64,000 bases of DNA from Mytilus edulis (GCF_963676685.1 NC_092355.1:1798001-1862000); one strand, 5' to 3'. Positions 30,387 through 59,110 are shown, counted from the first letter of the stretch. The notes: a model not told the origin generated them from the letters alone. Program-made: numbers and translations.

Positions 30387-31623
30387 ACAATAAAAACTTT
30401 AAACTAATTTACTGTTGTTTGAACTCATCTTGATAGACAATAAACATGCAGTAAAGTATGCTGAATGTCATTTTTTCTTCTTCTTTCAGGTTTATAATTT
30501 GTTAGATATTATATATTTAGTTTCATGTATTCTCTTTTCAAATCCTATATGTTTACTATTTTCAAAGTATCTTAAGAGTTTCAATTCTCTATTTTATTTT
30601 CAAAAAGAGTATTCATTATTCCAGTGAGTTATAAAGAAGCAAATTTCAAATGAATTACCTTAATAGGTAATCTGTAGATAAAACTACTTTTTATGAATTT
30701 TAAATTTACATACAACTTTATCCGAAATAATTTCACCATGAATTAAAATAAGTCAATAAAATACATGTAGCGTATATTGTAATTTTATATAACAAAATTT
30801 ACTCACGGTACCGGCACGCAGACATCATGAAAGTAATCATCTTCCCTGTGTATTACTATAATCCCGGGAGAAAAAAATCCCACTTTTTTGTTGTTGTTGA
30901 CACTATATTTACATAAATTGCACATACACACGTTAGAATAATCCAATATACTGGTATTCTATAAAATGAATTCTCATTTCCTTTTTTGTAAAGTGCGAAT
31001 ATCCTTTCGATCCCCAGCAATGTTGGCGAACAAAAATGTATATATTAAACATTTTTTATACGTTTTGCACCCAATGCAAATCTTAAAAAACTATCCGATA
31101 TATATATATATATGCAAAAACATGAATCCAGTGATATGCAATGCAATCCACAGTTCTATCAAAATACATATTTGCCATTATATAACTGTGTCCCATATTC
31201 GTACGTCGGCAAGAAAAGGTAAACACAATTATCAACAAGAATGTCTGTGTACCTGTGCACGTGTATTTCAATCTGTAATTGGGTCATTTATAGTAAAGGT
31301 TGTAAATTGTAATGTTGTTATGTATGAATGAAAGTTACATGTACTTTAAACCGTAACTGGTAAACCTATAGTGTATTGTTTTTATTAATGAATGAAAGTT
31401 ACATGCGTTTTATTGAGAATGAACAATGAATATAACAAACATTAACATTAATTATATGGTTTAGGTCAGGCAGACCGAACAGAGAGAATTATCTCTCTTT
31501 TTGTATTGTATTGTATATTTGATATGTTTTTCTGTATTTTGTTTCTACTTAGTTATATAATGTTCAACTACGTTAAGTGTATCACATATGAAATTAATAA
31601 GACTGTAAAGCCAAAACTAGATA

Positions 31624-34600: not shown

Positions 34601-35409
34601 AAGGCGAATTTTTGTCTCATGACGCTATTAACAAAAAATATAATTTGAATGTTACTTTTGTAGACATTCTTTCTATTAAACTTGCTATACCACGTGACTG
34701 GAAAGATTTGTTATTACAACAACACATGTCACCTAAGAGCAACTCTTTTGGATTCGTTTTTGAGCATGAGAATAAAAAAATGCCTATTAGCAAATTATAT
34801 ACTAAAGATGTATATTCACTTTTTATCGATCGGGTAAGTGTTTCTCCTATTTCACAACAAAGGTGGGAAGAAAGTTTTAATATAGAAATTAGTGACGAAA
34901 AGTGGAACAATATTTATTCACTAGCTTTTAAATGTACTATTGAAAGCAAACTACAAGCTTTTCAATATAAAGTGTTACACAGAATAGTCTCACATAATTA
35001 TCTCCTTGAAAAATATAAACTTTCTTTAACTAATGAGTGTGCCAGTTGTAAAGAAATAGAAACTATAGAGCATAAATTTTTTGAATGTATAGAAATAAAA
35101 CGATTTTGGAGAGAATTTTCTAATTGGTGGCATTTAGTTTTTGGAGTAAAATTTTTTTTAAATAAAGACAGTGTCATTTTTGGTATATTGAATTCTGATA
35201 ACTTAGTGTTAAACTATTGTATTTTACAGGCAAAATATTACATTCATTATGTAAAGTACACACAATTAGACAGATTGTTTATATCTGTGCAAGCTTTTCT
35301 CAAATTTTTGAAAAGACGTCTGGAGATATTAGAATATTTATATCTTTCTAAAGACAAGCACGAGTCATTTGTTGACAGATGGGGGGAATTTATGGAAGTT
35401 ATTAATTAA
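31624..35409 (+). CDS. LINE ORF2p: APE endonuclease, RT and C-terminal CCHC (1261 aa, intact)
   Basis: SLNVNG, FLQETH, GGDFN, SDH; PGTDG, DFEKAFD, RQGCPLSP, LADD; CASC..ETIEHKFFEC. Confidence 0.95.
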   Translation: MANYCINLTSLNVNGFGNNFKRKSMFLWLKKFQSDIIFLQETHSTESYETIWKKEWGGDIYFSHGETNSKGVAILFNSSTDYILKEKIADENGRYLILTVEIDNTDFVFVNYYAPTKNFENDQIEYIEKLKILLNEKLEQNLVLGGDFNTILNPSLDKMGGSKYNTPVKYTSKLEDFIEEFDLCDIWRTKNVDSRLYTWRQRTPLIQCRLDFWLISNFLSSSVTKTSIVPSIKSDHSLIKLTLSGENFSERGPGFWKFNSGLLTDKDYVDIVKNTLSECDDKYQNLENKNLKWDTIKSEIRGATVKYSKYKNMKLRERESSLKKRQDEIQKNLSRTYLDKDINTLLIELDIVKEDLEQIVNNQTRGAIIRSHAEHCEGNERNSKYFLSLEKRNYKNKCINKLVVNDIEILSQEKILNEERNFYENLYSSKEDPDKYSGDSNFFDLNFIPKLTDLEKDICDADISESECVKVLKTFKNNKSPGTDGLTAEFYKFFWIDVKKYVLESYEYSFETGTLSIDQKRGILTLIPKKDKDRTLLSNWRPLSLLNFDYKLLAKVIAERMKLFLPKLIDPDQTGYVAGRYIGENLRLIADIILFTTLKNYPGLILLVDFEKAFDTLEWKFIQKALACFNFGSKFRKWVLTLYSNISSLVVNNGFSSSPFKIERGVRQGCPLSPFLFILAVELLAINIRKNNHISGIKIGDTEIKISQLADDTTCFLKDVFSAQILLDSFNDFEKCSGLKVNFSKTEATWIGRNKFNKEGSLPIKWTDGFKTLGLKFNAFDEMVCSNLDTCIEKMESIIKMWRIRNLSLIGKIVILKSLAISKLIYVISSTHVPRSYVIKIQRDINNFLWNDSTPKVKSEVIQKSPSEGGLKAPNFEVQLLSFRIMWVKRFLSEHDSKWKHVSKAFFSLFDLEDLFMSRCEFEFLNLKAPLFYIEVLSAWKRFKGIFIPLNAFHVRKEFIWFNPFIKINRTSIFYRSWYTKGIRFINDIVDDKGEFLSHDAINKKYNLNVTFVDILSIKLAIPRDWKDLLLQQHMSPKSNSFGFVFEHENKKMPISKLYTKDVYSLFIDRVSVSPISQQRWEESFNIEISDEKWNNIYSLAFKCTIESKLQAFQYKVLHRIVSHNYLLEKYKLSLTNECASCKEIETIEHKFFECIEIKRFWREFSNWWHLVFGVKFFLNKDSVIFGILNSDNLVLNYCILQAKYYIHYVKYTQLDRLFISVQAFLKFLKRRLEILEYLYLSKDKHESFVDRWGEFMEVIN

Positions 35410-36079: not shown

Positions 36080-36688
36080 TCAAATGTGAGAAAAACGCTT
36101 GGTACTTTTTATATACTTTTGTACAGATAGAAAAACAATATCATTTTCTTCAGAACTCAAAGACTCATCACCAGAGAGCAATAACTCAATTGTAATATTG
36201 ACAGCAAAAACATTGATTTCATTTATCATTAAAAGCCTTTGTGATGAAAAATTGTTACAATATAATAAATAATGTTTAGCATCTTCATTGATGAAGCCAC
36301 ATAAACAATTGGCATCTTGTACTAAGTTTGCATTAAACAAATCAGATTGAAGAGTGCTACAATGGTTTCGCAACCTTGCATGTAATACAGATAGTAAGCG
36401 GTCTCCAGAGCAAAAATGCCTCGGAGGTTTTTTATTCTTATAGTATAACATGTGCAATTTGCTTTTAAATGATGAAAATGTAGGACTCTGTCTAATGATA
36501 ATATCTAAAGTGTTCCACAATGTTATGGATGCTGGGAAATAAGAATGTTGATAAACCGACAAACGATTCACTGGAATAGTGATATTGTGTCTGTTTCGTA
36601 AATTGTAATTACTAATATCAGACACAAATTCTGGAACCAAGTCATGTAAATAATCTGGAGCCTGATTGTTAATAATTTTATAAAACAT
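36080..36688 (-). pseudogene. C-terminal 202 aa of the CR1-type ORF2, cut off by the Polinton
   Basis: MFYKIINNQAPDYL..YNLR..SYFP..WN..HARLR..CLCG..EDAKHYLLYC; joins in frame to ..REVKKLAM of ORF 52807-55701. Confidence 0.9.
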
Positions 36689-36689
36689 G

Positions 36690-37652
36690 AGTAGTATGTA
36701 TATTACTATAGGGTTTTTGAATTTTATAGGGTTTTTACCATATTAGGTAATAACATGATGACATCACATTTTTTCACCTGTCGTACATGTTAACATACAA
36801 ACTATAGCGTTTTCCTTACCTGTTGATTCAAATACTTGAGCGTTTTACAAGATGATGTAATAACATGTTTTACTATCACGTTATACGTAGAAAACTCTCA
36901 AATGTTTGTCATTGTAGTACATGTTAGCATACGGAACCTTTACATGGTATATATGAAAGAGAGAGAAATTACAAAGTAAAAACAAATAATTATAAATTGA
37001 AATAAAATAAGTTAAATTTAAAAAAAAAATAATAATAAAAAAAAAAAAAAAAAAAAAAAAATAATCTAATGTATACACAAATCATTTACAATTTCTATGA
37101 AGATAGAGAAGGGTCTTTTTCCTTGGATTTTTCGTTATTTGGTTAAGAACATGAAGGAACTTTAAGAAATAGCATGTTTGTAACCATTTTCTAATTAGTA
37201 AAACAAATGATATAATCACCTGATCATGTCCAACATATTAAACCCTAAGGCGATACAACTAGAAATAAATGTTTATATCAAAATTAGTTTAGATATTAAA
37301 TGAAGGAAAAATAATCTAATAGTAATTATTAATATACTTTATATAGTTCGAGAAGACATTTTATATAAATAAATATCTGTCTTGTATCATTTAATTTTGC
37401 ACATTTAACTTGTTGTAGCTCGAGAAGAAAGTGTGTATAAATATATATACATATTTCACATTTATTTTGTTTTTATGAATTCAAAGTTTAGAACAGCATA
37501 AAAATAAATATTTCAGATGTCAATATATTTTGGTTGAATACTTGATAAATAAATGCTCTTAGTAAACAGTTTTTTCTTTTTCTTTAACTAACCTTAAATA
37601 CGTCTGTACAGTCCGAGATCCAAGAACGAAATGATTTTAAACAGGAAGTACA
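36690..37652 (+). repeat. Polinton left terminal inverted repeat
   Basis: Near-identical reverse complement of 51869-52828. Confidence 0.95.
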
Positions 37653-38147
37653 TGTACGTCATGTCCTGTACGTAAGTCACAACTTACGTTTCATTTGACC
37701 TCGACAACCCGGAATAGATGACATAAGTCATGTAATAGAAAATCAAGAGAGAAGCATACTTTGATGTCAAAGGATTACGTTTTGTCTGCACAGTGAACCC
37801 GGAAAGTCTGAATCTATGTACGTCATGTCCTGTACGTAAGTCACAAGCTACGTTTTATTTGACTTCGACAACCCGGAATAGATGACATAAGTCATGTAAT
37901 AGAAAATCAAGAGAGAAGCATACTTTGATGTCAAAGGATTACGTTTTGTCTGCACAATGAACCCGGAAAGTCTGAATCTATGTACGTCATGTCCTGTACG
38001 TAAGTCACAAGTTACGTTTTATTTGACCTCGACAACCCGGAATGGATGACATATTAAGTTATGCAATAGAAAATCAGGATAGAAGCATACTTTGATGTCA
38101 AATGCTTACGTTTTGTCGGCAAAGTGAACCCGGAAAGTCTGAATCTA
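37653..38147 (+). repeat. Three tandem ~164-bp units just inside the left TIR
   Basis: Units start at 37653, 37817 and 37981 (TGTACGTCATGTCCTGTACGTAAG...CCGGAAAGTCTGAATCTA). Confidence 0.95.
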
Positions 38148-38368
38148 TTGAGTAATACGGTAAAATTGATACCCGTAAAATCGATCATTAAGCAACTGTG
38201 CAGACAATTTTAGGGTATTATGGAAACATTACGAGTGAAAAAACAACCCATAGATACGGGGAAGCTTCCTCTACGACCAGACAACAATGTCACAAGACAT
38301 AAAACTATGTAATGAACCATGTATATATATCTCTCCGTTCCTACAAAATTATCATTCAACAATTTACC

Positions 38369-38941
38369 ATGAACGGAGACACTTCAAACCACGCTAGAAG
38401 ATGGAGGGTGTCCAAAACAGGCCCATTAGAAGAGGCAATACTTACCATAAAGTTAACAGAAAACAGACGATTGACAATGAAGACCTGGAATGGAGAAATT
38501 CGAGTCGACATACGAGAATGGGAATCCGACCACAAGGCCACCACAAGAGGGGTTAGTTTGTCAGCTATGCGTTGGAAAGTACTGCATGACTTTGCAGAGG
38601 ACATTGACCAGGCCATAGAAAAAATGTCCGGAAAGGAAGAAGTGGACGTCAAAATTCATTTAGGAGGGAACATATACCTTAGCGTAGACCACAGATTCAG
38701 CACTGTAGATATAAGAAAGTTTTGGAGACCTAAAGGAGAAACAGATGCACGACCAACCCGAAAAGGTATAGCGTTAACAACTGAGCAATGGCGTATTGTC
38801 CGAGAATCAATGGAGAAGGTGAATGAAAAAATCCCAGACATCGAAACCATGATACCGTGTTGGATGAGCGAAGACCATCAGAACCAGCTTGGAATGTTGA
38901 GATGTAGTGAATGCAATCCCGACGATTATATGAGCTATTGA
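38369..38941 (+). CDS. Tandem PC4 (Sub1/p15)-domain protein with a C-terminal Cys/His cluster
   Basis: Two PC4-like repeats (RVDIREW..RGVSLSAMRWKVL; TVDIRKFW..PTRKGIALTTEQW) and C-x5-H..CSEC. TATATATA (38322) and Inr-like TCATTC (38352) favour the ATG at 38369. Confidence 0.85.
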   Translation: MNGDTSNHARRWRVSKTGPLEEAILTIKLTENRRLTMKTWNGEIRVDIREWESDHKATTRGVSLSAMRWKVLHDFAEDIDQAIEKMSGKEEVDVKIHLGGNIYLSVDHRFSTVDIRKFWRPKGETDARPTRKGIALTTEQWRIVRESMEKVNEKIPDIETMIPCWMSEDHQNQLGMLRCSECNPDDYMSY

Positions 38942-39007
38942 AGAGATTCGTGGCTCTTTTTTTTATGTGTATCACAAAATAAAATATATAAAGACAATGT
39001 ATGACTT

Positions 39008-39448
39008 TTATTCTTTTATTGCACAAACAAACATAGATACAAACATGTCATTATAATTCAAATCGTCCATCTTGAATATATCGAGTATTCTTTTCATAGA
39101 ATGGTCATTTATCCTCAATACGGCATACACTATACAAAACTCTCAACACTTATTTGAGTTATAATTCTGAAGTCTTCTGGTGTTGTAAGCATATTGTGGT
39201 CCATTTGCAATCATAGTTTCAATAAACGGAGTCATCGGCTTGTTTCCTAGAGAATCGAAAAATTCAACTGGTCCTTGTAACGGAAAATACAACACTGTCC
39301 AATGCTTCCCCGGTTTATCACTTGGATCGGTATTAACAATAAAGAGACTTGGCTTTTTACCGATTTTTGTTGGTATTTCGTCTGCAGCACAGACAACACC
39401 AAAGTTGCAAAACAAGTTCAACAGTGTTCGTATTTGGTTGCTAAACAT
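39008..39448 (-). pseudogene. Adenain-like cysteine protease with one nonsense codon
   Basis: NTDPSDKPGKHW, FFDSLG, LQ..SNKC*EFC. TGA at 39143-39145 replaces the conserved Gly; the frame continues to DLNYND..TAA at 39008. Confidence 0.9.
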
Positions 39449-39449
39449 G

Positions 39450-40703
39450 TCAGATTGTAACGGCCCTTGACTGACTTATTTCAAGAAGCGATGAAAATCT
39501 AGCATACATGATTACTGTTATAGGTTCAGGTAACGGTGTTGCAAACTTCATTTCCACACGAGTTTGTCCCTTTTTCAAGATTGATGTGTCATCGCCGTCT
39601 TGAAAATCTATAACGTACATACAGTAGCCGTGCGTATAGTCGCCACGACTTATGTGTAATGCCGACGTAGTATTAGAGTACAAAGTTTGATACGCTTCTA
39701 CAAAGTTTCCAGCTGCGTAGTTAGGTACGAGGGGTCTTGATGGAAAATTCTGTCCATCAACCATGAAGTTCAAATAGTTGCAGTTGTAATGAAACATTTT
39801 AAACGGGTTTTTCTTGTAACTTCCATTGAACGACTCTGAGCTAACACATGATATGACTAAGGAATTGGGTACATTTCCAAGAAATAAATCTTCGGCACTG
39901 AACGAATAAATCCCGGCTGCTAGGCTATAGGTTTTAATGGTGGACTTCATGTAAGGATACAGTGCGGGGGATGCTTTCAATGCCTCGTTGTGCCCCAGCA
40001 TGATGCCAGAGTTCGGTTTAACTGTACACACCTTGAGATAGGCATCGACTATATGCACTTTGTAGTCAGGATTTGTTTCTGGAGACATGAGACGAAAAGC
40101 ATTCTTATGGGGCCACAGTTTGATCTGAATCGGCACTCCATTAAGGACGAGTCGTTTCTGTTGACACAAGTCCAAAAACAAGGGTCCTTCGTAATCGCAT
40201 ATTCGGCCTGATTGGGTTTCCTTGTATCTCATATATAATCCCGTATTAGGTCCGGATTCCGGATCTGGCTCATCAATGTCTGGTCCTCTGTCCTTATGAA
40301 AACCCCAGGCCGACATTTTACCATTCTGATCGTTTACGTTTGAATTTAAAATCATGTCAAAGTAAGCCTTATATGCATAATTAGTTCCAACATGGTTGAC
40401 GGCTTGGTGTTGGAGACTCATTTCCACTTGAGAAAATATACTGCTTAGAGGCACGTTTACAAGTCCTACCAAATTATCTGCAGTGACGGGAGATCCGTCG
40501 GAAGTTCTCAATTGCAGTTTGATGTGCAGTTTCAAGCGTTCTAAATCAAGATACGAGGTGGACGTGGCCGGTATGTTGAATTCAATGGGAGACTCCTCAA
40601 CGAGCTGATTGATGGGTCTGTATTCGATCCATTCCCGTCCCAGTAATCCAGTGTCCCGGGGTTGTCTATCGAACAAGGCAAGACTTTCACTCAATTTGTC
40701 CAT
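39450..40703 (-). CDS. Polinton major capsid protein (double jelly roll), 417 aa
   Basis: LALFD..WIEYRP..PIEFNIP..YLDL, SIFSQVE, YAYKAY, DLCQQKRLVLNGV, FNGSYKKNPF motifs and position in the element. Confidence 0.9.
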   Translation of the reverse strand: MDKLSESLALFDRQPRDTGLLGREWIEYRPINQLVEESPIEFNIPATSTSYLDLERLKLHIKLQLRTSDGSPVTADNLVGLVNVPLSSIFSQVEMSLQHQAVNHVGTNYAYKAYFDMILNSNVNDQNGKMSAWGFHKDRGPDIDEPDPESGPNTGLYMRYKETQSGRICDYEGPLFLDLCQQKRLVLNGVPIQIKLWPHKNAFRLMSPETNPDYKVHIVDAYLKVCTVKPNSGIMLGHNEALKASPALYPYMKSTIKTYSLAAGIYSFSAEDLFLGNVPNSLVISCVSSESFNGSYKKNPFKMFHYNCNYLNFMVDGQNFPSRPLVPNYAAGNFVEAYQTLYSNTTSALHISRGDYTHGYCMYVIDFQDGDDTSILKKGQTRVEMKFATPLPEPITVIMYARFSSLLEISQSRAVTI

Positions 40704-40754
40704 GGTATGTACAAGAAATATTTATAACAACACGTCTCCCTCTCTTATAGTAGT

Positions 40755-41030
40755 TCATCCATCGAAAACATCGCTAAATTTACGTTTGAGTGTTTTTCTT
40801 TTCAGATTTTTAATTTCTTCTTTGGCCATCTCGACAGCCTGTGCAGTTGGTGACACAATTTTCAGATCGGGTTCAGATGAACCCATTCCTTTCTGGTTGT
40901 CCTTGACGACGTATTGACCAGGGACATGGTTTCCAGACGTCATAGACAAAAAGTAATCCTTGTATTTATTGACGTTTGGTTCGAATGGCACCCAGGTCTT
41001 TGTGTCGTAATCGTAAACGTGTGTGGTCAT
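40755..41030 (-). CDS. Small Polinton protein with a basic tail (putative core protein)
   Basis: Tightly packed between mCP and MCP; QKGMG motif; VSPTAQAVEMAK helix; KRKTLKRK tail. Confidence 0.65.
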   Translation of the reverse strand: MTTHVYDYDTKTWVPFEPNVNKYKDYFLSMTSGNHVPGQYVVKDNQKGMGSSEPDLKIVSPTAQAVEMAKEEIKNLKRKTLKRKFSDVFDG

Positions 41031-41431
41031 ACTTGTTTCAAATGAAGAATGAAGGACACTGTTCCTAGTGCTTTAAATTCGGACAGGTGTTGGTCTCTTA
41101 TAGATATTTTGATGCAACTTAGATCCGATCGCGTAATTGCGAAATAGAAAGAATCCGTAAAGATCCAGTCTTTTTTATACACTGGAATTTCTCTCAGTAC
41201 AGCTAGTGTTTTATCTCCGACAAACGACTCCTCACAGAAATCAACACAAACAAAAACAGAGGTGACGTGCGGGGGAAACGCTATATCCAACGAACACTGT
41301 TTCAGACTGCATTTCCAATGTCCCTGTAAACGGATCGTCTGTGGTAGAGCAACCGTAAACTCTTGTGCATTGTTATGAGGAAAGTAATTCAGAGAGCAAT
41401 CACTCGATAGAAACAGGTAATGCTGGTTCAT
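41027..41431 (-). CDS. Minor capsid (penton) protein, compact 134 aa
   Basis: N-terminal YLFLSS..YFPHN..FTVALP..LQGHWKCSL and C-terminal IKISIRD..FILHLK, typical of Polinton mCP. Confidence 0.8.
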   Translation of the reverse strand: MNQHYLFLSSDCSLNYFPHNNAQEFTVALPQTIRLQGHWKCSLKQCSLDIAFPPHVTSVFVCVDFCEESFVGDKTLAVLREIPVYKKDWIFTDSFYFAITRSDLSCIKISIRDQHLSEFKALGTVSFILHLKQV

Positions 41432-41467
41432 TGCTGTTAATGGGGAAGTGTGTGGGTTTCGTTTTTC

Positions 41468-42570
41468 TTATACAAATTCCTTCACCTCACTCTCGAGAAT
41501 CCAAGAGTCGAATTTTTTAGGCCAATGCAACCACCTCACAAGCACTTCTTTCCTACCCCGGTATTTTCGTCGCTTGATAATTCGTTCCACTTTATATCGT
41601 GTGTTCTCATCCACCTTAACTCTTTGCAATTCTGGAAAATAATAGGTACCTTCTATCTCGTCGCCGAGCCAGTCTGTTAATCGGTATACCGGCGTATTGT
41701 CACGTCTGTAGCGGGACTGTATCTTAAATATTTCTCCAGTAAATCGTTGTTGGTATTCTCTCTCGAAGGTGCCCTCAAGTAAGTCAAACGGACCAGATCT
41801 CCGATTTTGAACATGTATTTTCTTTTTGCAACTCGTTTTTCCTTGTGGTACTTGGTGCGAATCAAATATTGTTGAAGTCTTACTTCGTCTTCGTTATCGT
41901 TGCCGACCTCCGAGGGTGACGTTCCTAGTGATCTATGGGTTGTATGGTTGTAGCTGTCAACGAGTGAATCTAAAACCAACCTGTATGATTTATTCTGGTT
42001 TTCTGAAATGTAGCGGTAAATTTTCATCTTCAGCGTTTTCTGTACCCTTTCTGCATAGGACGCCTTGACCTCGTTTTGAGTCAGGATGTGCTTGATGTTT
42101 TTGCCACGACAGAAGCGTTGGAAATTTCCGTTCGTGAACTCCGAACCCTTGTCTGTCCTCAAAACATTCGGAGTCCGACCGTTGCCGACAATTGATTCTA
42201 GAGCTCTTGTAACTTCGGAGCCGGTTTTCTGTTTCAGTAATCGACAATTCACAAATCTAGAAAAAATGTCAATGGTTACCAATCCATATCTGAAGCCCTG
42301 ATTGTCTTTTTGCAGGGAGGAGAGATCCATTAAATCGGCATCCCACTGACTGTCTATTCCGTCTACAACCACCCTATTTCTCCGGAATCGTCGACGTACT
42401 TGTCGGGTCAAGGTGTAAGCATCCTGTCCTTGTAACCATTGTCGTATGTGATACTTGCTGATGTCGTATTGTCCCTGACTTTTTGCAAAGTCGTACAGCT
42501 TTTCGACCCCCGAGAAAGACGCCGGACTTTTCGGATCGTAATAGATCGTTTTTAAATAGTCTTCCCACAT
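41468..42570 (-). pseudogene. Retroviral-like integrase with C-terminal chromodomain (one frameshift)
   Basis: YYDPKSPASFSG, WDADL, IDIFSR, TDKGSEF, AER. After a shift at ~41772 the frame reads FEREYQQRFTGEIF..YKVERIIKRR..VLVRWLHWPKKFDSWI to TAA at 41468. Confidence 0.92.
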
Positions 42571-42602
42571 GATTGATGTGTTGTGTATTTAACCCCCACT
42601 TC

Positions 42603-43130
42603 TTATAAATCACACAACAGCTCTAACTCCATTAACGTCGGATAAACATGATACTCTATATCTCTTTGGTCTTTCACCCCGGAGATCACCACCTTACCGG
42701 AATGAAAGCAAGTAAATCGCACGTGTCCCCTCGAAACGATAGCGCCAGGGAACAATTCCGGTTCATAATTTGCGGCAAAGGTATTCTTCAAGAGATTCAA
42801 ACGGAGGTGTCCGTTAAGACTGTGTGTCAACGACATGGTTAGTATCTTGACGTCGTGGAAGTTCACTGGCCATCCGTGTCTCTGAATCTGTCTTGCGTAT
42901 CGTCTCAATCTCAGCCTGGCTTCTTTTTCATCGAGGACAGCACCGTTGCAAACAATTTTCCCTCGCGCGTAAACCAAGCAGTTTCCTCCTATCTTTTTGT
43001 GTTTCCAGATAACCACATTGTGACGTTTCGCATCATACCTTACATTACACATGACCTTTTGCGTTAAGACAAGGAGGTCGATTGGACACCCGAGCTCCGC
43101 CGAACAGACGATGTTACTGACATGGATCAT
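42603..43130 (-). CDS. Divergent TATA-box-binding protein (TBP core, two repeats, 175 aa)
   Basis: SNIVCSAELGCPIDL, YDAKRH, GKIVCNGA, RRYARQIQRHG, NYEPELFPG and FHSGKVVISG align colinearly with the TBP core. First ATG is at 43130; the track start is a TTG. Confidence 0.93.
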   Translation of the reverse strand: MIHVSNIVCSAELGCPIDLLVLTQKVMCNVRYDAKRHNVVIWKHKKIGGNCLVYARGKIVCNGAVLDEKEARLRLRRYARQIQRHGWPVNFHDVKILTMSLTHSLNGHLRLNLLKNTFAANYEPELFPGAIVSRGHVRFTCFHSGKVVISGVKDQRDIEYHVYPTLMELELLCDL

Positions 43131-43165
43131 GGCTATCGTCTGGTTCAAACTTCTCAGTATTAGTG

Positions 43166-43177
43166 TTTATATAAGAG
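43166..43177. promoter_or_regulatory. Bidirectional TATA element between the TBP and ATPase genes
   Basis: TTTATATAAGAG reads TATATAAA toward TBP (ATG 43130) and TATATAAG/TATAAGAG toward the ATPase (ATG 43213), centred in an 82-bp gap. Confidence 0.75.
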
Positions 43178-43212
43178 CGACACACCGTACAGAGTACCTT
43201 TCTGTCTACATC

Positions 43213-43866
43213 ATGAAAACGCTTGTACCATTCGAAATGTGCAGTAGTATGATTATATCTGGAGCGACGGGAAGTGGGAAAAGTACCTGGATATACAATT
43301 TTTTGCAAAATATCGACGACATGTATACAGACCAAAGTCCGGAGAAGGTACTGTACTGCTATGGGATCTACCAAGACCTGTTTATAGACATGGAAAGAAA
43401 TTGTCCGAGATTATCGTTCCATCAAGGAATACCTACGCGAGAGGAGATAGAAGATTTCACCGCCAATGGCAAACATAATCTGATCGTGTTGGACGACCTC
43501 ATGCACGTGGTCGTGGACAATGCCGAAATGGAATTGCTTTTCACTCAGGGGTGTCATCACAGGAAGCTCTCTGTGATATTTGTCACCCAGCAACTATTTT
43601 ATCAGGGTAAGAAAGCACGGACCATTGCCCTCAATACATGGTACATGGTGCTACTAAAGAACTTACGGAACGTGGCCCAGGTTTCCACCCTGGGACGTCA
43701 ACTGTTTCCGGGGAAAGGTAACGCCTTAGCGAATGCTTATCAAGATTGTCTGAAAACGCCATATGGTTATTTAGTTGTAGATATGGCGCCGAATACAAAC
43801 GATCTATATCGACTCCGGACCAACGTTTTCCCGGGAGAGGACCCCCTCATTTATTCCGCATTATAA
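43213..43866 (+). CDS. A32/FtsK-like genome packaging ATPase
   Basis: Walker A GATGSGKS, Walker B LIVLDD, HHRKLSVIFVTQ, PYGYLVVD. Real start is probably the ATG at 43213. Confidence 0.93.
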   Translation: MKTLVPFEMCSSMIISGATGSGKSTWIYNFLQNIDDMYTDQSPEKVLYCYGIYQDLFIDMERNCPRLSFHQGIPTREEIEDFTANGKHNLIVLDDLMHVVVDNAEMELLFTQGCHHRKLSVIFVTQQLFYQGKKARTIALNTWYMVLLKNLRNVAQVSTLGRQLFPGKGNALANAYQDCLKTPYGYLVVDMAPNTNDLYRLRTNVFPGEDPLIYSAL

Positions 43867-43901
43867 GAGGAATCTTTGTGACTGTGTATGTTTTGGAAAG
43901 T

Positions 43902-44216
43902 ATGAGCGATACCATTACAAAAAACGGCAGTTTCCTGAAGTTCTTTTTAACGGCAAACACGCTTCAGAAAAAAGTCATGTTACAGAATGTATCGCTTCAA
44001 CAGACCAAAGCCCTGTCGGAAATAGCGGTCAATTTGCTAAACGATACAGTTGATTTGCCAGCCCAAACGAAAATGCAACTCAAAAGATATAAGAAGGTAT
44101 ATCGGTTAATAGGCAGCAGACGAACGAGCTTGAAAAACAAACAGAACGTTTTAAGGTCCTCCTATCGTGCCATCACATTAATGTTGCAAGGGTTCTGGTC
44201 TCATCTTGGATTATGA
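43902..44216 (+). CDS. Conserved small basic Polinton protein (PW/PM-type; name uncertain)
   Basis: ALSEIAVNLL..LKRYKKVYRLIG..SLKNKQ pattern; TATAAGAG 40 bp upstream of the ATG. Confidence 0.7.
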   Translation: MSDTITKNGSFLKFFLTANTLQKKVMLQNVSLQQTKALSEIAVNLLNDTVDLPAQTKMQLKRYKKVYRLIGSRRTSLKNKQNVLRSSYRAITLMLQGFWSHLGL

Positions 44217-44632
44217 GTTCCGTACAGAAGGACGTTTTGATACCGTACGACAGATACCAGCAGTTAATCAAAAGATCTACCAAATATCAAATTCAATCGG
44301 GCCAGGGACAACGTTTAGAGGAAAGGTCCATTGTAGACGCCATTCCGACTGATCAGACCCATCGCGCCCAGGAGATTTTACGACTCATTCGGGACAGTCC
44401 AGAACAACCCTTGAACTGGAATGAAAACGGAGAAATCATTTACAGGGGGACATTGAAACGGGGATCGAGCATCACGAAACTTTTAAGACATCTAGTGAGT
44501 GGATCTAAAACAACCAAACCTATTGGACAACGAGAATTCCTCAAGAGTCTGAAAGAAATGGGCGTCACTGTTAGTTTGATAACCCAATCGATCCCAAGAC
44601 CACCGGGAAAGCGAAAATGGATGACCTTATAA
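44213..44632 (+). CDS. Conserved Polinton protein (PZ-type; name uncertain)
   Basis: VLIPYDRY, WNENGEIIYRG..GSSITKLL, PIGQREFLKSL. Confidence 0.75.
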   Translation: MSSVQKDVLIPYDRYQQLIKRSTKYQIQSGQGQRLEERSIVDAIPTDQTHRAQEILRLIRDSPEQPLNWNENGEIIYRGTLKRGSSITKLLRHLVSGSKTTKPIGQREFLKSLKEMGVTVSLITQSIPRPPGKRKWMTL

Positions 44633-44667
44633 GAGTGGTGAGGGCCTGTATTCATCATTTCCACAGA

Positions 44668-45048
44668 ATGGAGGATTACGAGAGAGTGGAACGGGACTTC
44701 AAATTGCATTTCAATGTCATAAAAATTATTGGTGTTCTGTTAATGCTATACAGTACGGTGATAACGATTTTGTTGGGAATAAACGTGAAGCCTGGCGGTG
44801 TTTCAATGGACTGTACCTTACGTTTAAGAAATAGCAAAGGCTGTCAGCCCAGAGACCAGTTTCCACTGACAAACGGTGCATATGTGACTGTGTGTACAAG
44901 AAGAGGCGTGGACATAAGACATTATATAAACGACAAAGTTCCAGCAGAGGGTGTGCACCTGAATCAAAGACAGTGGGTTTATTTGAAACGTTCAATGGCT
45001 CACATCGATCGTGCCATATCGACGGGAAACAATACCTCAACCCTGTGA
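44668..45048 (+). CDS. Transmembrane-anchored PC4-like protein
   Basis: Hydrophobic IIGVLLMLYSTVITILLGINV followed by FPLTNGAYVTV..VDIRHY..GVHLNQRQWVYLK..IDRAI (PC4 pattern). Confidence 0.7.
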   Translation: MEDYERVERDFKLHFNVIKIIGVLLMLYSTVITILLGINVKPGGVSMDCTLRLRNSKGCQPRDQFPLTNGAYVTVCTRRGVDIRHYINDKVPAEGVHLNQRQWVYLKRSMAHIDRAISTGNNTSTL

Positions 45049-45214
45049 TTTTTTTTTTTTTTTTTTTTTTTTTTCTCATATGAAAAAAGGAGAGACGAGA
45101 TGTATTTATGTACCATACATGTTTAGTTTTTTTTAGCTGTACCATTATTAAAGAATAGAAAACGAGGTGTTCATTTTGTATTATCGCACAAATAAATAAA
45201 AACACAGAGTTTAT

Positions 45215-48200
45215 TCAAAATCCGTACGGAATCGTCGTCATGTCATCCTTGACGACTCTCTTCGTATATACCACTTGGTATTTCTTTGATTGTTCTCTGT
45301 TGTAGATAAGGGACATTGGCCGATTCCTGACGATCTTTGTCTTGTCCACGAGCTCGATCTTCCTCTTCTTTGTGGATGGTTCTTCGTCCTCGTTCGGAGA
45401 GAACAACAGGCCCTTGATGGCGTCGAAATTGACGAGTTTTGAATTCTCGTAATTCAACGAGAATCCACGGACCTTGCATACTTCCTGACCATCGGATCTT
45501 CTGTAGGCGTAATTTTTGGGGCCACCGCTAACGAATTCCTCGATGTAGTGTCCCTCCAATTCGTCGGTCAATTCTCCGAGGTAATCTCCCAGTGATAATG
45601 TCTGTGCATTCCGCCTTTCGATATAGATGACGGAATCTGTGTCGTGGTACAACACATTTTCTTTCAACTGGTCGAGAACATCGTACAACTTCAGACGGGC
45701 CCAGGATGTCGTGAAAGTGGCCAAGAAGATGTTCGTCTTCGTGTCTTCGTCAACGAAGTCGTTCACGTGAATCCACGATACCTGGACGATGTGGTCGTTG
45801 ACGATTTCAAAATTTAAAACTTGTTTCGTTGGATCGGTAAGCATCTGAAAAAATTCATCCATCTGGTTATCGTAAAAAAACATCACTTGTGTCAAGTTCA
45901 GTCTTTGGCCGAATTTGCCCCAGAACGAATTGAGACAAAGCTTGGCCACAGCACGCAGTCCTGGGTTTTTCTCTATGGCATCCCAGTCCAGACGAACCCC
46001 CTCTTTCTGGAAATAACTTTCGATGTACGTCTTCTTTTGATCCGTAGTCCTACACCAGGCGGGAAAGTCGGACGCTTCCTGTTTGTATTTTAGAAAAGTG
46101 TTGATATAGCGAGCAAACAGTCCTCCGTCATTGGTCTCGTGGTCGTACATTGTAGTTTCCGGCCAGTGATATACTTCATACATTTTCACCACGGTGTATC
46201 CCTTTTCCATTGCTTTCATGATTTCGGGAGTGGTCCAGGTTCCAAGCAAACACCTCTGTTCGTCTGTGTGTTGACAAGGTGATTTAGACTCCTGGTCGGC
46301 ACATGTTTTACACAGCGGGAATTTCAATTTGCCCTGGTTTTTATACGGCAGAACTGGAAAAAACAGTTTTCTTGGAGGCAACATTTTTACCAGAGCGATA
46401 CCGAAGTAATCCTTCATCTCACTGAAATCGCTGTGAATAATATCTGGATGACCCACGGGGTACCGACACGTCTTGTTCGTCCAAGGGTATAGGCTCGTGA
46501 AATCGACGTATCGTATGAACTCCCCATCGGTTACCTCGTGATGCAGCCGGATTGCATTGGTTCTTCCACCATAGAAGCTATCTCGAGCATCCAAAGGTGG
46601 CTGTAAATCGAGGGAATTGACGAACCGTCTCATTTGTTCGTTTTCTTTCAGTTTCGATTGGAAATCGTGCTCCCAGATCGACACGTATTTGTAACCGGCA
46701 TTTTCGATGGTCTGCTTTCTGATTTTGGTCAGGTAATACAATTCTATCATCGTCTGCCTCGTCCCTGGAAGTCTGGTCTTGTCCCGTTCGTTCGGCATAC
46801 AGACTGGACACCCGTGCCACCTGCAGCCTAAAAACTCGTATACAGTATTGGTCTCTCTGCAATACCCATCGAAACGAATCCGTCGGCTGGGAAGACTGAC
46901 TTCACCACCATTCAAAGCGTGTTGGATCTTTTCCAGCTTTCCCTGTTTCTTGTTCTTTTCCATCACCCATTCCAACCATTCAATGCTCTCTTTACTGTAG
47001 TTGTCCAATCTTCGGTATCCTGCAGCCGGAATCAGAGCAATGGGCGATTTCACGAACTCGCGTTCGTGTTCTCGTATGCTCATCTCTTGGAGATCTGCAT
47101 GCGAGTACCATCTGTCTTCGTATCGAACGTCTATGTCGGACAGGTAGGTGTGCCATCCCAGGGATTTCTTTACTCTGACGTCCTCGTCGCCTTGGTGTTT
47201 TCTACATTCAACCACAAGATTGTGTGTGTGCAAGAGATCTTTTGGACTCAACCATCTATCGACGTACCATACTTCTCCATGTCCGTTGACCCATCGTGTC
47301 GGCAATGCGAGATCTGTGTTGGTTACTTAATGAACTCGGTGTTCCTCTTGAAGAAAACAGGTTCTAAATATGGTCATACACATACTGGCAATCGTCACAG
47401 AGTCGAAGGCATCCACGTCATTGTTTGTCTGTGTAAAGATCAACTCACGGAACTTTAAACAGGCCTTCCTCGGGATGGTTACGTCGTCACGACAGTAAGC
47501 CTCGATCTCTTTTGCAAAGTCAAATATGGCACCCTTTGATTTCTTTTCCTTGTACCATTTCAAGAAGTCGTGTCTATTTTCAACGTTCATGCTGTTCATG
47601 CCGTAGTCCTGCGGAGCTGGATATTCACCAATGTAGTTTTGATTTTCAATCGTGTTGAAAAATGAGGGAAGTAACCTTTCCTGATTTCCTCGTCTTCTGC
47701 TGTCAGGGAGAACGTTTTCGGCAGTTTTTTCAACGACATTGGTAAAAAATTCAGAGAGTCGACCAGTCTGATATGTAGCCCCTTGCCGACGTACATGCTC
47801 ATTATCTTGGAGCCGTTGTATATAATGTGTGTCGGTGTCATGCAGTTGTCCACCAGATACCTCAGGATGAAGGTGCCGTCGTATCCTTGTAGGTTGTGGG
47901 CAACGACTTTAGCTCCGAAATGTTTTTCTTGAAATAGCCAACGTCCGAAATGAACCGCTGACTCATATCCCTTGAAAACCATTTCTCGGTTGCCACAGGT
48001 GTCGGCACAAGGTGACCTGATGTACGACCCTTCTTTCTTCTTTTCACATTTCGTGCACCTGGTGCCACAGTTTTTGCACCGGACCTCGATCGGCTTCTCC
48101 TGACAGGCACTACAGCTAGTATGGGCGACTACAAAGTTGGGTTTGTGCTGGTTTCGTCCACACCAGTCCGTACTGCAATGTTGGCAGACTCTGCTTCCTT

Positions 48201-51092
48201 CTTTCGGCATGTAATTTTCCCTGCACTGCACTGGTGACGACTGGTCACATTCGAAGTCAAAAAAGATGAAAAATTTGTCTTTTATTTCCTTCTTTAGACT
48301 CCTCATGTAACACCTGTGGTTTCCGAAGACGACCTCAGTACAATTTTTACAGGTCCACTCGCCGCACTCGTGGGGATTTTCCAGCAAGTTTCTGTTTCTC
48401 CGGTCGACTGTTTTATGGCACTTGATGCAACGCCAATACTTGGAACATTCAGATAGACTGTCTCTGGCGTTCAGCGTTTGACGTTTCCCCTTCTCCTCTG
48501 GTGTCAACTTGTGGTACTGGAAACACTCCATAGAACGACATTCCATACGGCAGGACCTGCAAGATACAGGATCATCCATCACCACACATTCGTCACTTCG
48601 CTTACAAATTAAGCAGGGTCCACCACATGCATGCTTTGCGACGTTACTGTACGGTTTCAGACATTTCATACAAAAGTAGTTGTTTGAAAAGAAACCGGTT
48701 ATCGTATTGATGGCGTGGAAATGGTTGCCGTCCACCAGATAAAGAAAGATACATGGTCTGTCCGACTGTGCTCCTATTCGACAGAATCTGTTGCCTAACG
48801 CTGAATCGATGACGAGTATTCGAAGGTGTAAAACGTCTTCGAATACTGAGATGTCTGTGATGGTACAGGGTCGGTCCAGTGGCAAACCTACTTTACTTGT
48901 TAGGGCAGCTGCCAACTCCCTCTGTTCTCTGCTATTCTTTTTTCGTAGATTTTCGTAGTGGGTTGACGGCATCTTCCCCGTGTCTAATATCAGTTGCAAA
49001 TTAGACCTTCCTTTCCTTTCTTTCGTTATTTTCCGCCATTCTCCTCGAGGACAGACATTCTGCTTGGCCCAACAGACAGCGATGGCCCTGGCAAGACATA
49101 AATTGTCATCGTTTACAATTTCCACGATGGCTTTTTTTCTGGACAGCGAATTGTTATCTCCTCTCAGCTGTGTAAAATGTAATCTTTTACCCCCTTTAGG
49201 GATATCGATGACACCCACGTCTATTCTGAAGTCCACGTTTAAGGCCAGTTCTTGGTGACTGTTTAGAACTTTCATCACGTACTCCAGGACACAGGAGGGT
49301 GTCAGCTCACCAATAGGTCTTAATGAAACGACTATGGGTTCCACGTCTGGATGTTGGATGACCACTCTACCCAGGTCTTTCGTATCCATTCCTCGGGTCG
49401 CCTCACGAATGACGTCTTCAAACATTTTCATGAGGTTAGCATGAATATCTAACAGACGCTGGCCCCTCCATTTCTCATTAAATGTAACCCCGTATACATT
49501 TTCCATCGCCTTGTTTTTAAATGTCTTCGACGATTTTAGGTGTATTTCATAAGCGTCTTCGTCCCCGCACCCTTCTTGTTGAGACGTGTCGTGGCTAAGC
49601 GGGGAGCTCGATGGCACTGCTTCGTCCCCGCACCCTTCTTGTTGAGACGTGTCGTGGCTAAAATGGGAGGTCGATGGCACTGCTTCGTCAGGAGTACCTC
49701 TTTCTTTTGCATGTTCTTCTTTGTGCTTCACTAGATCTTCGTTCTTTTTGAATCGTGCGAAACAAACACTGCATTGGACTGTTTTCCCGCCTGTCTTCGG
49801 TTTACCTATACCACAAAATAAAATAAATCTGTTGTAAGTTATCGTTTATCAATTACTGTTCATTCAGAAAATATTTATTAATCAATTTTAGACTTAAATA
49901 CGATTTTTATCTTAACATTTTTCAGAAACATCCTGTTTGATGCACATTAAATTTTTCAAAATTATACGGGTTTCAAATATTGCTTCTACCACTCTTTCCC
50001 ATTTAAAAAAAATATAGTCTTTGAAGGCCGTACGGTGACCTATAGAAACAATTACAATTAGACTGTAATCAACTTACCACTTTTATTATCCATTTTTTCT
50101 TCAATACTTTGGGCACATTGGTATAGCAAAGTGTTTTCTCCCTCATCTGGAAAAAAGAACTTAGAATTAAAATACATGTAATCTTACTCCCAACAATGAT
50201 GCATTACGTTTTAATACATGTATTCGTATTCTATAAGATATGTCTCTATGTATAATACGTATTTGCTAAAATTTATTATTTTCAGAAAAATCCTGTTTGA
50301 TGCACATTAAATATTTTAAAATACGGGTTTCAATTATTGCCACTACCACTCTTTCCCCATTAAAAAAATATAGTCTTTGAAGAAAAGAAAAACATTGTGT
50401 ATGTTACCTTCAGTAAACAAACAATTACAATTAGACTGTAATCAACTTACCACTTTCATTATCCATTTTTTCTTCAACACTTTGGGCACATTGGTATAAC
50501 AGAGTGTTTTCTTCCTCATCTGAAAAAAAAGAATTTAGAATTAAAGTAAATGTAATCTTACTCCCAACAATGATACATTACGTTTTAATACATGTATTCG
50601 TATTCAATAAGATATGTCTCTATGTACATGTATAATACGTATTTGCTAAAATTTATATAATTGTAGGAGCATACTTCATTTGCATAATTTAAGATGATAG
50701 GGATAACAAAGAAAAGAAACTCACCAAATAAGATTTCCATTTCTGCGTCTTTCATCCTTGAACAATAATCACAGTGTATCTTTAAGTGTTCCTTACATCT
50801 AAAAGCAAACACATTTAAAGTTATTAAAGACATACACTCTAAATTAAGATTATAAACGCAATGGTTCTAAAAATAAATAAATGTTTGTACTTTAACATTT
50901 ATAATATATATACTAGACTTGCATGATTTTTTTTAATTATTTTTCACACAAATTATTTTGTTACTAGACATTACTTTATTTTAAAAAAAATGTGCAAAAA
51001 TTGAAAAACATTTAAAAAAATACTTACATATTGCTTTCTATGTACTCGGCATCGGCAAACAATTGATCGTTATCTTCAGGGGAAAAATCCAT
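45215..51092 (-). pseudogene. polB: Protein-primed family B DNA polymerase polyprotein, spliced (exons 51092-51028, 50798-50725, 50519-50451, 50146-50078, 49805-45215); one frameshift and one stop
   Basis: C2H2 finger; vOTU-like DNLCLARA..NHFHAI; exonuclease FFDFE / AHNLQGYD / YCRDDV; VSR-like DGY..YEFLGCRWHGC; polymerase DFTSLYP, KLCLNSFWGKFGQ, YHDTDS. Frameshift at ~47660 and TAA at 47327-47329. Confidence 0.92.
49915..50657. repeat. ~365-bp tandem duplication containing one 69-nt PolB exon per unit
   Basis: TTCAGAAA.ATCCTGTTTGATGCACATTAAA at 49921 and 50281; exons at 50078-50146 and 50451-50519. Confidence 0.9.
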
Positions 51093-51868
51093 TGGTTTTT
51101 TTTCTTGTTCGTGAATAAATTGAACGTTATCGGTTGATTCGAATTCTGTTGTAGAATTTTGAGAGTTTTGAATATAATTCTAACTTATATAGGTGATATT
51201 ACAGAAGAAAGGTGACATTATGATTAATGATTTCTTTGCTATAGAAGCATAATTACAACACAAAGAGAGATCAAATACATGCCGATAGGAACAGTATACG
51301 GTCAAATAAAGTACAATTTGTGACAAACGTCCAGAAAATGACTTACATGTTCTTCCTGTTTAAGATCATTTCATATTTGTATTCGGATTGTACGACAGAA
51401 TATATTGTTAGTCTTTTATTTACAGAAATGATATTAACAAACGTGTGTTTAGTCTAATATTATTTTTTTTCCATGTTCAAATCTTGAATTTTCTTACGGG
51501 TTCATACAATTTGAAAAAAAAATGTTAAAAGAAACATATATTTTATATAAACCTTCTTTTTGAAGGTATACACATTTATTTTGTGTATTTATTTTGACAT
51601 TTAGTGCTATGTAAATATATTTATATTCTTTTTTCATTTTATATCCAAATTAATTTTGAGAAATACTTTTTCTTGACTTGTACATGTATAGCCTAAAGGT
51701 TAAAATTGTTACACTTTATCCTGGGATTATATTCTTTGGTTCTCTAATTAGCTAATTGGTAATGTAACAACCATGTCATTACATCTTCTTACAGTACTTT
51801 CGTGTATTTGACCAAAAATCCAGACCCACAAACCTCCTTTTCTATCTATAAAGAACATATTAATCATC

Positions 51869-52828
51869 TGTACTTCCTGTTTAAAATCATTTCGTTCTTG
51901 GATCTCGGACTGTGCAGACGTATTTAAGGTTAGTTAAAGAAAAAAAAATGTTTACTAAGAGCATTTATTTATCAAGTATTCAACCAAAATATTTTGACAT
52001 CTGAAATATTTATTTTTATGCTGTTCTAAACTTTGAATTCATAAAATCAAAAAAAATGTGAAATATGTATATATATTTATATACACTTTCTTCTCGAGCT
52101 ACAACAAGTTAAATGTGCAAAATTAAATGATACAAGACAGATATTTATTTATATAAAATGTCTTCTCGAACTATATAAAGTATATTAATAATAACTATTA
52201 GATTATTTTTCCTTCATTTAATATCTAAACTAATTTTGATATAAACATTTTTTTCTAGTTGTATCGCCTTAGGGTTTAATATGTTAGACATGATCAGGTG
52301 ATTATATCATTTGTTTTACTAATTAGAAAATTGTTACAAACATGCTATTTCTTAAAGTTCCTTCATGTTCTTAACCAAATAACGAAAAATCCAAGGAAAA
52401 AGACCCTTCTCTATCTTCATAGAAATTGTAAATGATTTGTGTATACATTAGATTATTTTTTTTTTTTTTTTTTTTTTTTTTATTATTATTTTTTTTTTAA
52501 ATTTAACTTATTTTATTTCAATTTATAATTATTTGTTTTTACTTTGTAATTTCTCTCTCTTTCATATATACCATGTAAAGGTTCCGTATGCTAACATGTA
52601 CTACAATGACAAACATTTGAGAGTTTTCTACGTATAACGTGATAGTAAAACATGTTATTACATCATCTTGTAAAACGCTCAAGTATTTGAATCAACAGGT
52701 AAGGAAAACGCTATAGTTTGTATGTTAACATGTACGACAGGTGAAAAAATGTGATGTCATCATGTTATTACCTAATATGGTAAAAACCCTATAAAATTCA
52801 AAAACCCTATAGTAATATACATACTACT
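51869..52828 (-). repeat. Polinton right terminal inverted repeat
   Basis: Reverse complement of 36690-37652; ends in ACTACT. Confidence 0.95.
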
Positions 52829-58451: not shown

Positions 58452-59110
58452 AAAGAGGGACGAAAGATACCAAAGGGACAGTCAAACTCATAAGTCCAAA
58501 ACAAACTGACAATGCTATGTCTAAAAATAAAAAAGACAAACAGAAAAACAATAGTACACATGACACAACATAGAAAACAAAAGAATAAACAACACGAACC
58601 CCACCAAAAACCAGGGGTGATCTCAGGTGCTCCGGAAGGGTAAGAAGATCCTGCTCCACATGTGGCACCCGTCGTGTTGCTTATGTGATTACAAATCCGG
58701 TAAATAGTCTAATTCGGTAGGTCACATTCATGAAAGGGAAGGGGATTGTAGTTACGACGTAAAGAACATATCCGATATCATATGTGAAACGGTTATTCCA
58801 TAACGGTCAACCAACTCATGATGGCGTCCGTAAAATTTACGAAGGGATGATTTCAACTTCACCATTTGGAACTCTTGGTTTAATAGCTTCCTTGTGAGCA
58901 GTAACCCTCTATCAAGAAAATCATGATAGGAAATGCAGGCACGGGAATATCGTATCAATTGGGAGATATATACCCCGTATGCAGGTGCTGCTGGAATGTT
59001 GCTACTTAGAAATGGAAAGTTCACAATTTGAAAGCTGAAATCATCTCTTTTGTCGTAAAGTTTTGTTTTCAACCGACCCTCATTGTCAATTTCTAGATGT
59101 AAGTCAAGAT
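58452..59110 (-). mobile_element. 5'-truncated Penelope-like element copy
   Basis: Near-identical to ~10780-11430 (LDLHLEIDNEGRLKTKLYDKRDDF..). Confidence 0.85.

Follow-up and report, generated by a model that had tools for sequence, protein, structure and literature searches.

Maverick/Polinton elements (adintoviruses; Barreat and Katzourakis, 2021; Starrett et al., 2021) are defined by terminal inverted repeats (TIRs), (AGT)2//(ACT)2 ends, a 6-bp target duplication and eight core genes plus pm, as given in the available text of PMC8097293. A TBP-like gene appears in Starrett et al. as a figure-legend label (10.1101/697771; PMC8502044), and in the available portions of these two texts the word "promoter" occurs 0 times, and no motif, TBP role or early/late scheme is given. 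In full-text searches of the openly available literature, a Polinton-related TBP turned up only as that label, and the available parts of PMC1935006 and of a PLV preprint (10.64898/2026.06.19.733378) hold nothing on a TBP or late box; supplements, annotated maps, Repbase and subscription papers could bear on novelty. A parallel is offered by herpesviruses, in which a viral TBP mimic (vTBP: ORF24 of KSHV (Kaposi's sarcoma-associated herpesvirus), BcRF1 of Epstein-Barr virus (EBV), UL87 of human cytomegalovirus (HCMV)) is paired with a TATT box. Here we analyse a 64,000-nucleotide stretch of Mytilus edulis (GCF_963676685.1, NC_092355.1:1798001-1862000), to which we will refer in full as "the window". 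It contains a Maverick/Polinton of 16,139 bp (36690..52828) with a TBP gene of its own. We propose that a box with the core TAAGA, standing shortly before the virion genes of this element and of some relatives, is a late promoter driven by the element TBP, analogous to the herpesvirus vTBP/TATT pair; judging from sequence, we give this reading a probability of roughly 0.7. Such a TBP/late-box system is apparently undescribed for Polintons.

The box in the window and in related elements

An initial annotation of the window had reported eight TATAAGA copies upstream of start codons, and all of them were recovered with the same positions, strands and distances, together with a further copy at 38710. 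The box lies 46 nt before the gene of the major capsid protein (MCP; TATAAGAG, 40742..40749, minus strand, intergenic), 41 nt before that of the minor capsid protein (mCP; TATAAGAA, 41465..41472, minus), 37 nt before the integrase gene (TATAAGAA, 42600..42607, minus), 43 nt before the packaging ATPase gene (TATAAGAG, 43170..43177, plus), and 40 nt before both open reading frame (ORF) 43902, PM by position (TATAAGAG, 43862..43869, plus), and ORF 44668 (TATAAGAG, 44628..44635, plus). Three of these six near copies reuse the upstream TAA stop, namely that of TBP (integrase box), ATPase (PM box) and ORF 44213, PZ by position (ORF 44668 box), and the mCP box probably does the same with the end of the frameshifted integrase. 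The farther copies lie 72 nt before a 91-aa ORF, PW by position (TATAAGAG, 41095..41102, minus; inside the mCP coding sequence as Ile-Arg-Asp, and uncertain as a box), and 125 nt before PZ (TATAAGAA, 44088..44095, plus; inside the PM coding sequence and probably no promoter box). The copies at 38710, 44088 and 41102, all within coding sequence, may be dictated by the protein, and on that ground the first two were rejected as promoter boxes. Between 39001 and 45100, the eight observed copies, all sense-oriented, compare with a mean of 0.8 and a maximum of 4 in 300 Markov simulations. Six of nine late starts have the word within a 26-nt window, for which a simple binomial gives a chance of about 2e-15, indicative only, as the motif was picked post hoc. 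Over the whole AT-rich window TATAAGA is mildly enriched (27 vs 17).

The canonical boxes that had been assigned to TBP, tandem PC4 and PolB are likewise all present. The tandem PC4 gene is preceded by TATATATA (38322..38329, plus). Downstream of it stands a TCATT word, presumably initiator-like. The TBP ATG has TATATAAA at 43 nt (43166..43173, minus), and the probable PolB promoter is TATATAAG (51184..51191, minus), which stands 99 nt upstream of an ATG (51092) with a GTAAG donor behind it; the gene would be spliced. The TBP promoter (minus) and the ATPase box (plus) form one 12-bp bidirectional element at 43166-43177; this overlap on opposite strands makes a self-shut-off of TBP possible, and it was not seen in other TBP-bearing loci, whose gene order differs.

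For comparison, the host genome (1.37 Gb) was searched with four TBP queries and the Pfam model, giving an element-type TBP at about eight places, window included, plus two spliced host genes. An MCP search gave at least 100 matches, and 21 element loci were analysed, as single stretches of less than 10 kb each, so that the early-gene promoters of the relatives are mostly unseen. Among 80 TBP-bearing metagenome loci returned, nine were taken as element-like, the others looking cellular by identity. Near-copies (L002, L014, L015) and fragmentary or decayed loci (L003, L005-L008) were left out of the counts, core-gene starts were picked by homology, and a family profile search found no TBP in L008-L021. 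In the window, L001, L004 and L032 taken together, 21 of 27 core genes have TAAGA 30-82 nt upstream (15/20 without the window; background 0.11); the eleven TBP-less Polintons from this genome have it there at 5/72 (background 0.06). At 30-55 nt, the counts are 14/31 in all TBP-bearing loci without the window vs 3/72 in TBP-less ones, with a Fisher p of 1.4e-6 that is overstated because genes and elements are related. The motif is not equally present in TBP-less Polintons: it tracks the TBP-encoding elements and remains at background level in the TBP-less ones of the same genome. TBP genes themselves are devoid of it at 30-82 nt (0/14; one has it at 83 nt). The early/late cascade through a captured TBP that the initial annotation had put forward is partly supported by these two results, and its details on the motif, on G at position 6 and on the N-terminal repeat are corrected below. 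The PC4-bearing, TBP-less L016 and L019 have boxes before 0/10 genes, so PC4 is not the determinant of the box. A genome-wide count of the pattern ATAAGAG-N25-45-ATG gave a background level and is uninformative; IMG/VR scans with TBP queries returned no relative, and an IMG/VR scan with the ATPase only distant elements (7 loci), which were kept out of the analysis.

TATAAGA, as first noted, describes the boxes of the window; what the elements share is the core TAAGA, and the flanks are particular to the element: TATAAGAR (window), NATAAGAG (L001, L004) and YGTAAGAA (L032). Counted on the coding strand, with words chosen after inspection, ATAAGAG occurs 10 times in L001 (0.37 expected) and 9 in L004 (0.79), GTAAGAA 9 in L032 (1.03), CATAAGA 5 in L079 (0.67) and TATAAGA 5 in L038 (0.70); the other strand has none of these words, save one in L079's TATAAGA count, and L037 shows a weak ATAAGT excess. 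Another word, TATAAAC, shows no enrichment in 15 TBP-bearing loci, at 0-2 copies per strand. The distance table holds 27 chosen boxes, of which 24 fall 28-49 nt upstream of the ATG and none closer; position 6 is G in 27/27, and position 2 is G in 6/6 L032 boxes. The MCP box stands at 46, 48 and 49 nt in the window, L001 and L032 (79 nt in L004), where it is intergenic, in PW phase 1 and in PW phase 2, respectively. At the 3' end of TBP, the box supplies a stop codon in the window, L003 and L032, and in L001 and L004 it is read as sense codons. The steady distance across phases, together with this stop/sense switch, points to a DNA-level signal. The PW box has a counterpart at 78 nt in L001 and no match in L032.

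The same facts bear on the highly improbable explanation that the box acts in RNA or as coding sequence (through stop-codon context, re-initiation or splicing), or is read by PM, PZ or the PC4-like protein. About ten boxes do share bases with a TAA stop, conserved peptides (IRD, YKR, RKK) are encoded at several others, and GTAAGA resembles a splice donor; however, boxes stand at the same distance intergenically and in both other phases, no same-strand gene lies upstream of the ATPase box, GA follows the TAA stop in 2/44 TBP-less cases, and PM, PZ and PC4 are also found in box-less elements.

Distance and flanks are also what can be set against another explanation, quite improbable in our judgement, in which a large DNA virus acts as helper, its RNA polymerase uses TAAG as a baculovirus-type late initiator, the elements are virophage-like satellites and TBP is a passenger. 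Mavirus uses late promoters of its helper, and the baculovirus late motif opens with A, G or T. The element boxes show (A/G/T)TAAG no farther than about 50 nt from the ATG, with an invariant TAAG preceded by A or G, and baculovirus late motifs lie in the same range, 30-50 nt before the ATG (available text of PMC5490809). Nevertheless, the flanks are uniform within an element and different between elements, no chosen-start ATG lies nearer than 28 nt, and 7/27 boxes have another ATG at +16 to +29, which would fall in the leader; this explanation also leaves the co-occurrence with TBP unaccounted for, and no evidence of a helper virus was found, none having been sought.

Public RNA contigs (4 of the 17 listed runs; X1 and X2 are one sample, and RNA status is a guess except for X5) cover PC4, protease/MCP/PW, PM/PZ/ORF 44668 and a little of TBP. 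They run across four boxes, which fits nested read-through in contigs that carry no start, strand or level, and PolB is nearly uncovered, to which no evidential weight is given.

The element TBP and the reader of the box

The element TBP (42603..43130, minus; Pfam TBP 5e-26) consists of the core only, with 175 aa. Its model (pLDDT 97) has the two-repeat saddle fold, aligning 173 residues with human TBP (Z 21.3, root-mean-square deviation 1.6), to which it is 34% identical; among named sequences, the closest relative comes from the pearl oyster Pinctada. Numbered as in yeast (with Table 1 of PMC12529657 as the anchor), the element TBP shows the changes F99H, F116Y, N159T, V161S, L205T and T124N, and the canonical TATA-binding set is thus incomplete; N69, E186/E188, F190 and F207 are kept, and the acidic TFIIB-binding stirrup YEPELFP is intact. 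A profile search of 1.84 billion representatives held 71 short, non-canonical TBPs among its best 150 matches, which together with the loci make 84 element-type rows, ten of them with DNA context. N159 has become T in 72 of the 84, V161 S/T in 75 and T124 N/H in 51, L205 is kept in 10, and of the stirrup acids, E186 persists in 62 and E188 in 72. One clade unites 42 of 46 sampled rows (SH-aLRT 97, quick tree). The 45 cellular rows used for comparison were selected by patterns that fix some of these positions; the host TBP exons are canonical independently of those patterns. The N-terminal repeat had been emphasized at first; the family-wide changes fall mostly in the C-terminal repeat (box positions 2-4), with T124N as the main N-terminal change.

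Leu-163, as named below for wild-type TBP, is taken by us to be yeast L205. In wild-type TBP, C and G are excluded at positions 2, 4 and 5 (Leu-163 at 2), and all four bases are allowed at 6 (available text of PMC13566119, which sums up the co-crystal studies). The premise that G6 sets the box apart holds in that the TATA consensus disfavours it, and fails in that G6 is structurally compatible with wild-type TBP; the window box alone therefore needs no special TBP. In L032, TBP has S at 205 and the boxes have G at position 2, and YGTAAGAA is, as far as its sequence tells, unreadable by wild-type TBP. These facts matter for an unlikely alternative: that host TBP/TFIID, or a TBP paralogue of the host, reads the box as a weak TATA, as a habit of the lineage, with the element TBP otherwise employed (dominant-negative shut-off, boosting). 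Such a view gains from the structurally allowed G6 (PMC13566119), from the ATPase box, which is canonical if read two bases earlier (TATATAAG from 43168), as had been cautioned, and from the one clade that TBP and box have in common. It is hard to reconcile with L032, which fixes a position-2 G excluded for wild-type TBP (PMC13566119), with the canonical host TBP exons, and with the strict G6 (27/27), odd for an A-preferring reader. The TBP-less elements of this host, for their part, carry canonical boxes: TATAWAW precedes 12/72 of the same core genes in them vs 1/27 in the four box-bearing elements, a modest excess over the TBP-less background of 7%.

A late promoter driven by the element TBP would belong to a transcription programme in two steps. 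Host RNA polymerase II (Pol II) and host TBP would transcribe TBP, tandem PC4 and PolB from their ordinary TATA boxes. The element TBP would then bind the 8-bp box, TATAAGAR in the window, before MCP, mCP, integrase, ATPase, PM and the PC4-like gene, its rebuilt minor-groove face fixing TAAGA at positions 3-7 and relaxing positions 1-2. From TBP-DNA structures and the two-fold symmetry of the saddle, we infer that T124N/Q would face G6 and that G at position 2 would become acceptable once L205 is lost. The retained acidic stirrup would recruit host TFIIB, and Pol II would start roughly 25-30 nt downstream of the box, giving very short leaders; in the window copy, the element TBP could in addition shut off its own gene. 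As a tentative and somewhat doubtful extension, a single captured general transcription factor of 170 aa may have been reprogrammed, each element family having a private, co-evolving TBP-box pair that switches on its own virion genes only, orthogonal to the host and to other families, with the overlapping bidirectional box as an automatic early-to-late switch. The set of boxes would then be TATAAGAR, NATAAGAG, YGTAAGAA, CATAAGAA and possibly ATAAGTR.

Several observations weigh against the element TBP as reader of the box. In the divergent TBP-bearing L037, L038 and L079, TAAGA precedes 2/10 core genes, in L037 a variant box stands before PC4, and the fragments L033-L036 show no enrichment. 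The coding strand of TBP-less L018 holds ATAAGAG five times, where 0.75 would be expected; the word ranks best among 256, and no copy stands at a start. The window's protease gene lacks a TAAGA box (AATAAGTC at 32 nt instead), and none was found in 3/3 elements. Two of the four intercalating phenylalanines are replaced in the window TBP (F99H, F116Y), and host TBP could in principle read the window's boxes, G6 being compatible. No initiator word occurs at a fixed distance from the 27 picked boxes, and in the box-bearing group 7/15 TAA stops of labelled genes double as boxes. Also, the four elements with the clearest signal (window, L001, L004 and L032) fall into a single clade (96/93 in the ATPase tree, 93/90 in that of MCP), with L038/L079 separate, so the counts represent far fewer than 27 independent events; the independent contrasts are one or two, not dozens. 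L016 and L019 group with TBP-bearing rows in the integrase tree (100/99), and a single clade for all TBP-bearing elements is neither demonstrated nor rejected (p-AU 0.10).

Borders and gene content of the element

The borders of the element rest on its TIR arms of about 960 bp (left, 36690..37652, plus; right, 51869..52828, minus), its ends AGTAGT//ACTACT, the 6-bp AACATG duplication at 36684-36689 and 52829-52834, and a long LINE-like endonuclease/reverse-transcriptase ORF split by the insertion (36080-36688 and 52807-55668). Besides these marks, it has the protein-primed PolB, retroviral-type integrase, double-jelly-roll MCP and packaging ATPase of a Maverick/Polinton.

The presumed early tandem PC4 gene (38369..38941, plus; Pfam PC4 1.7e-20, two stretches) is found in TBP-less elements too. 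Between the left TIR and its promoter lie three 164-bp tandem repeats (37652-38148) with TGACGTA and CCGGAA words, which we take to be CRE/ETS-like; they are a possible early enhancer. In L001, L035, L037 and L007 the TBP gene lies directly downstream of the PC4 gene (4-nt overlap in L001), which suggests an early PC4-TBP cassette in several elements. The 126-aa ORF 44668 (44668..45048, plus) has a PC4-like C-terminal half, aligning with tandem PC4 at 36% over 56 aa (pairwise E 7e-5; no Pfam match); this single third PC4-like domain behind a TAAGA box would provide a late PC4-like protein besides the early tandem one.

The MCP (39450..40703, minus; double jelly roll, model pLDDT 79) matches the capsids of PBCV-1, iridovirus, Sputnik and mavirus (E 2.5e-14). 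Also on the minus strand are the stop-interrupted protease gene (39143..39448), PW (40755..41030), mCP (41027..41431), integrase (41677..42570; Pfam rve 1.5e-12; frame broken near the 3' end, 297 aa vs about 370 in relatives) and PolB (45215..49506; Pfam DNA_pol_B_2; two ORFs, frame broken near 47596). The plus strand has the A32-like ATPase (43213..43866), kept in all relatives, whose Pfam Pox_A32 match (1.3e-4, 22 bits) lies just below the cut-off of 22.8, the 104-aa PM (43902..44216) and the 139-aa PZ (44213..44632). The protease, mCP, PW, PM and PZ gave no Pfam matches, and their names rest on gene order (PMC8097293, in its available text) and on homology among elements. The frames of integrase, protease and PolB are all broken in the window copy. 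PolB apparently has two 5' introns (minus; from the ATG at 51092 to a donor near 51028, then an exon at about 50798-50725 and an acceptor at 49831, opening into a zinc-finger-like stretch), unlike described Mavericks/Polintons.

The protease start adjoins or overlaps the MCP stop in the window (39448-39450), L001, L004 and most TBP-less loci; the abutting start and the missing box suggest that protease translation is coupled to that of MCP. A copy inside MCP (L001/L004/L008) was rejected as a protease promoter, since it encodes a conserved Tyr-Lys-Arg and reads TACAAGA in the window. A conserved hydrophobic ORF of 76-86 aa with its own box precedes the ATPase gene in L001 (1999-2073), L004 (7660-7850) and L032 (1546-1806) and is absent from the window. 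In L010, ATPase/PM/PZ genes apparently flank the capsid module as an inverted duplicate (1495-1809 and 8595-9588). Recent activity is suggested for one TBP-less family, in which at least 20 copies share the same MCP score; the TBP-bearing families have one or two copies each. Outside the element, the window contains a 465-nt, 97% inverted repeat pair (10778-11242 and 58646-59110) and two long ORFs of 435 and 1261 aa (29079-35409).

Significance and comparison with known systems

How capsid genes are controlled in animal Polintons/Mavericks, and whether these have a viral early/late cycle, are questions to which a candidate activator with an 8-bp target would give access. If the proposal is true, this would be the smallest viral late-transcription system based on TBP known, with one protein vs six in herpesviruses, and the polar substitutions at matching TBP positions would be a convergence bearing on TATA recognition itself. 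The roughly 80 divergent family members would amount to a natural collection of TBPs altered in specificity yet still able to dock host TFIIB, and the regulatory state of endogenous copies would become readable, as these would be silent until the TBP gene is on. The TBPs of the window, L001 and L032 would each prefer their own box among TATAAAAG, TATAAGAG, CATAAGAG and CGTAAGAA, and host TBP would fail on CGTAAGAA.

TBP-like proteins of giant viruses and asfarviruses serve viral RNA polymerases. They share with the element protein the presence of a TBP fold in a double-stranded DNA virus, as seen in the fold matches; however, they are 8-18% identical, and the Polinton TBP family is much nearer to cellular TBP. 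With cellular TBP/TRF, the window protein has in common the fold and the retained N69, E186/E188, F190 and F207, and it differs in having no N-terminal extension or introns, in the family-wide alteration of N159, V161, L205 and T124, and in its separate clade. Baculovirus late promoters have a TAAG core, a similar ATG distance and a place before capsid genes (PMC5490809, available text), but in them a viral RNA polymerase starts at TAAG, whereas the ORF list and Pfam scan show no RNA polymerase ORF in the window element, and its flanks vary by element.

The likeness to the herpesvirus vTBPs extends to a TBP-fold protein with a polar minor-groove face, a non-canonical minimal box before structural genes and the use of host Pol II, and in both the polar changes fall at yeast positions 122, 124, 161 and 205; in the KSHV mimic the polar residues are N485, N487, N520 and S560 (Table 1 of PMC12529657, available in part). 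ORF24, on the other hand, with its 752 aa, contacts Pol II directly, works only with five partner proteins, in a system that depends on DNA replication, and is missing the acidic residues for TFIIB binding, whereas the Polinton TBP is a bare core that keeps its stirrup and is paired with TAAGA rather than TATT. A Pol II-binding N-terminal domain, an extra C-terminal domain and the TATT motif are all absent from the window TBP and its box, and the comparison gave no sign of common descent. By analogy, the Polinton system would work like the herpesvirus vTBP/TATT system without belonging to it.

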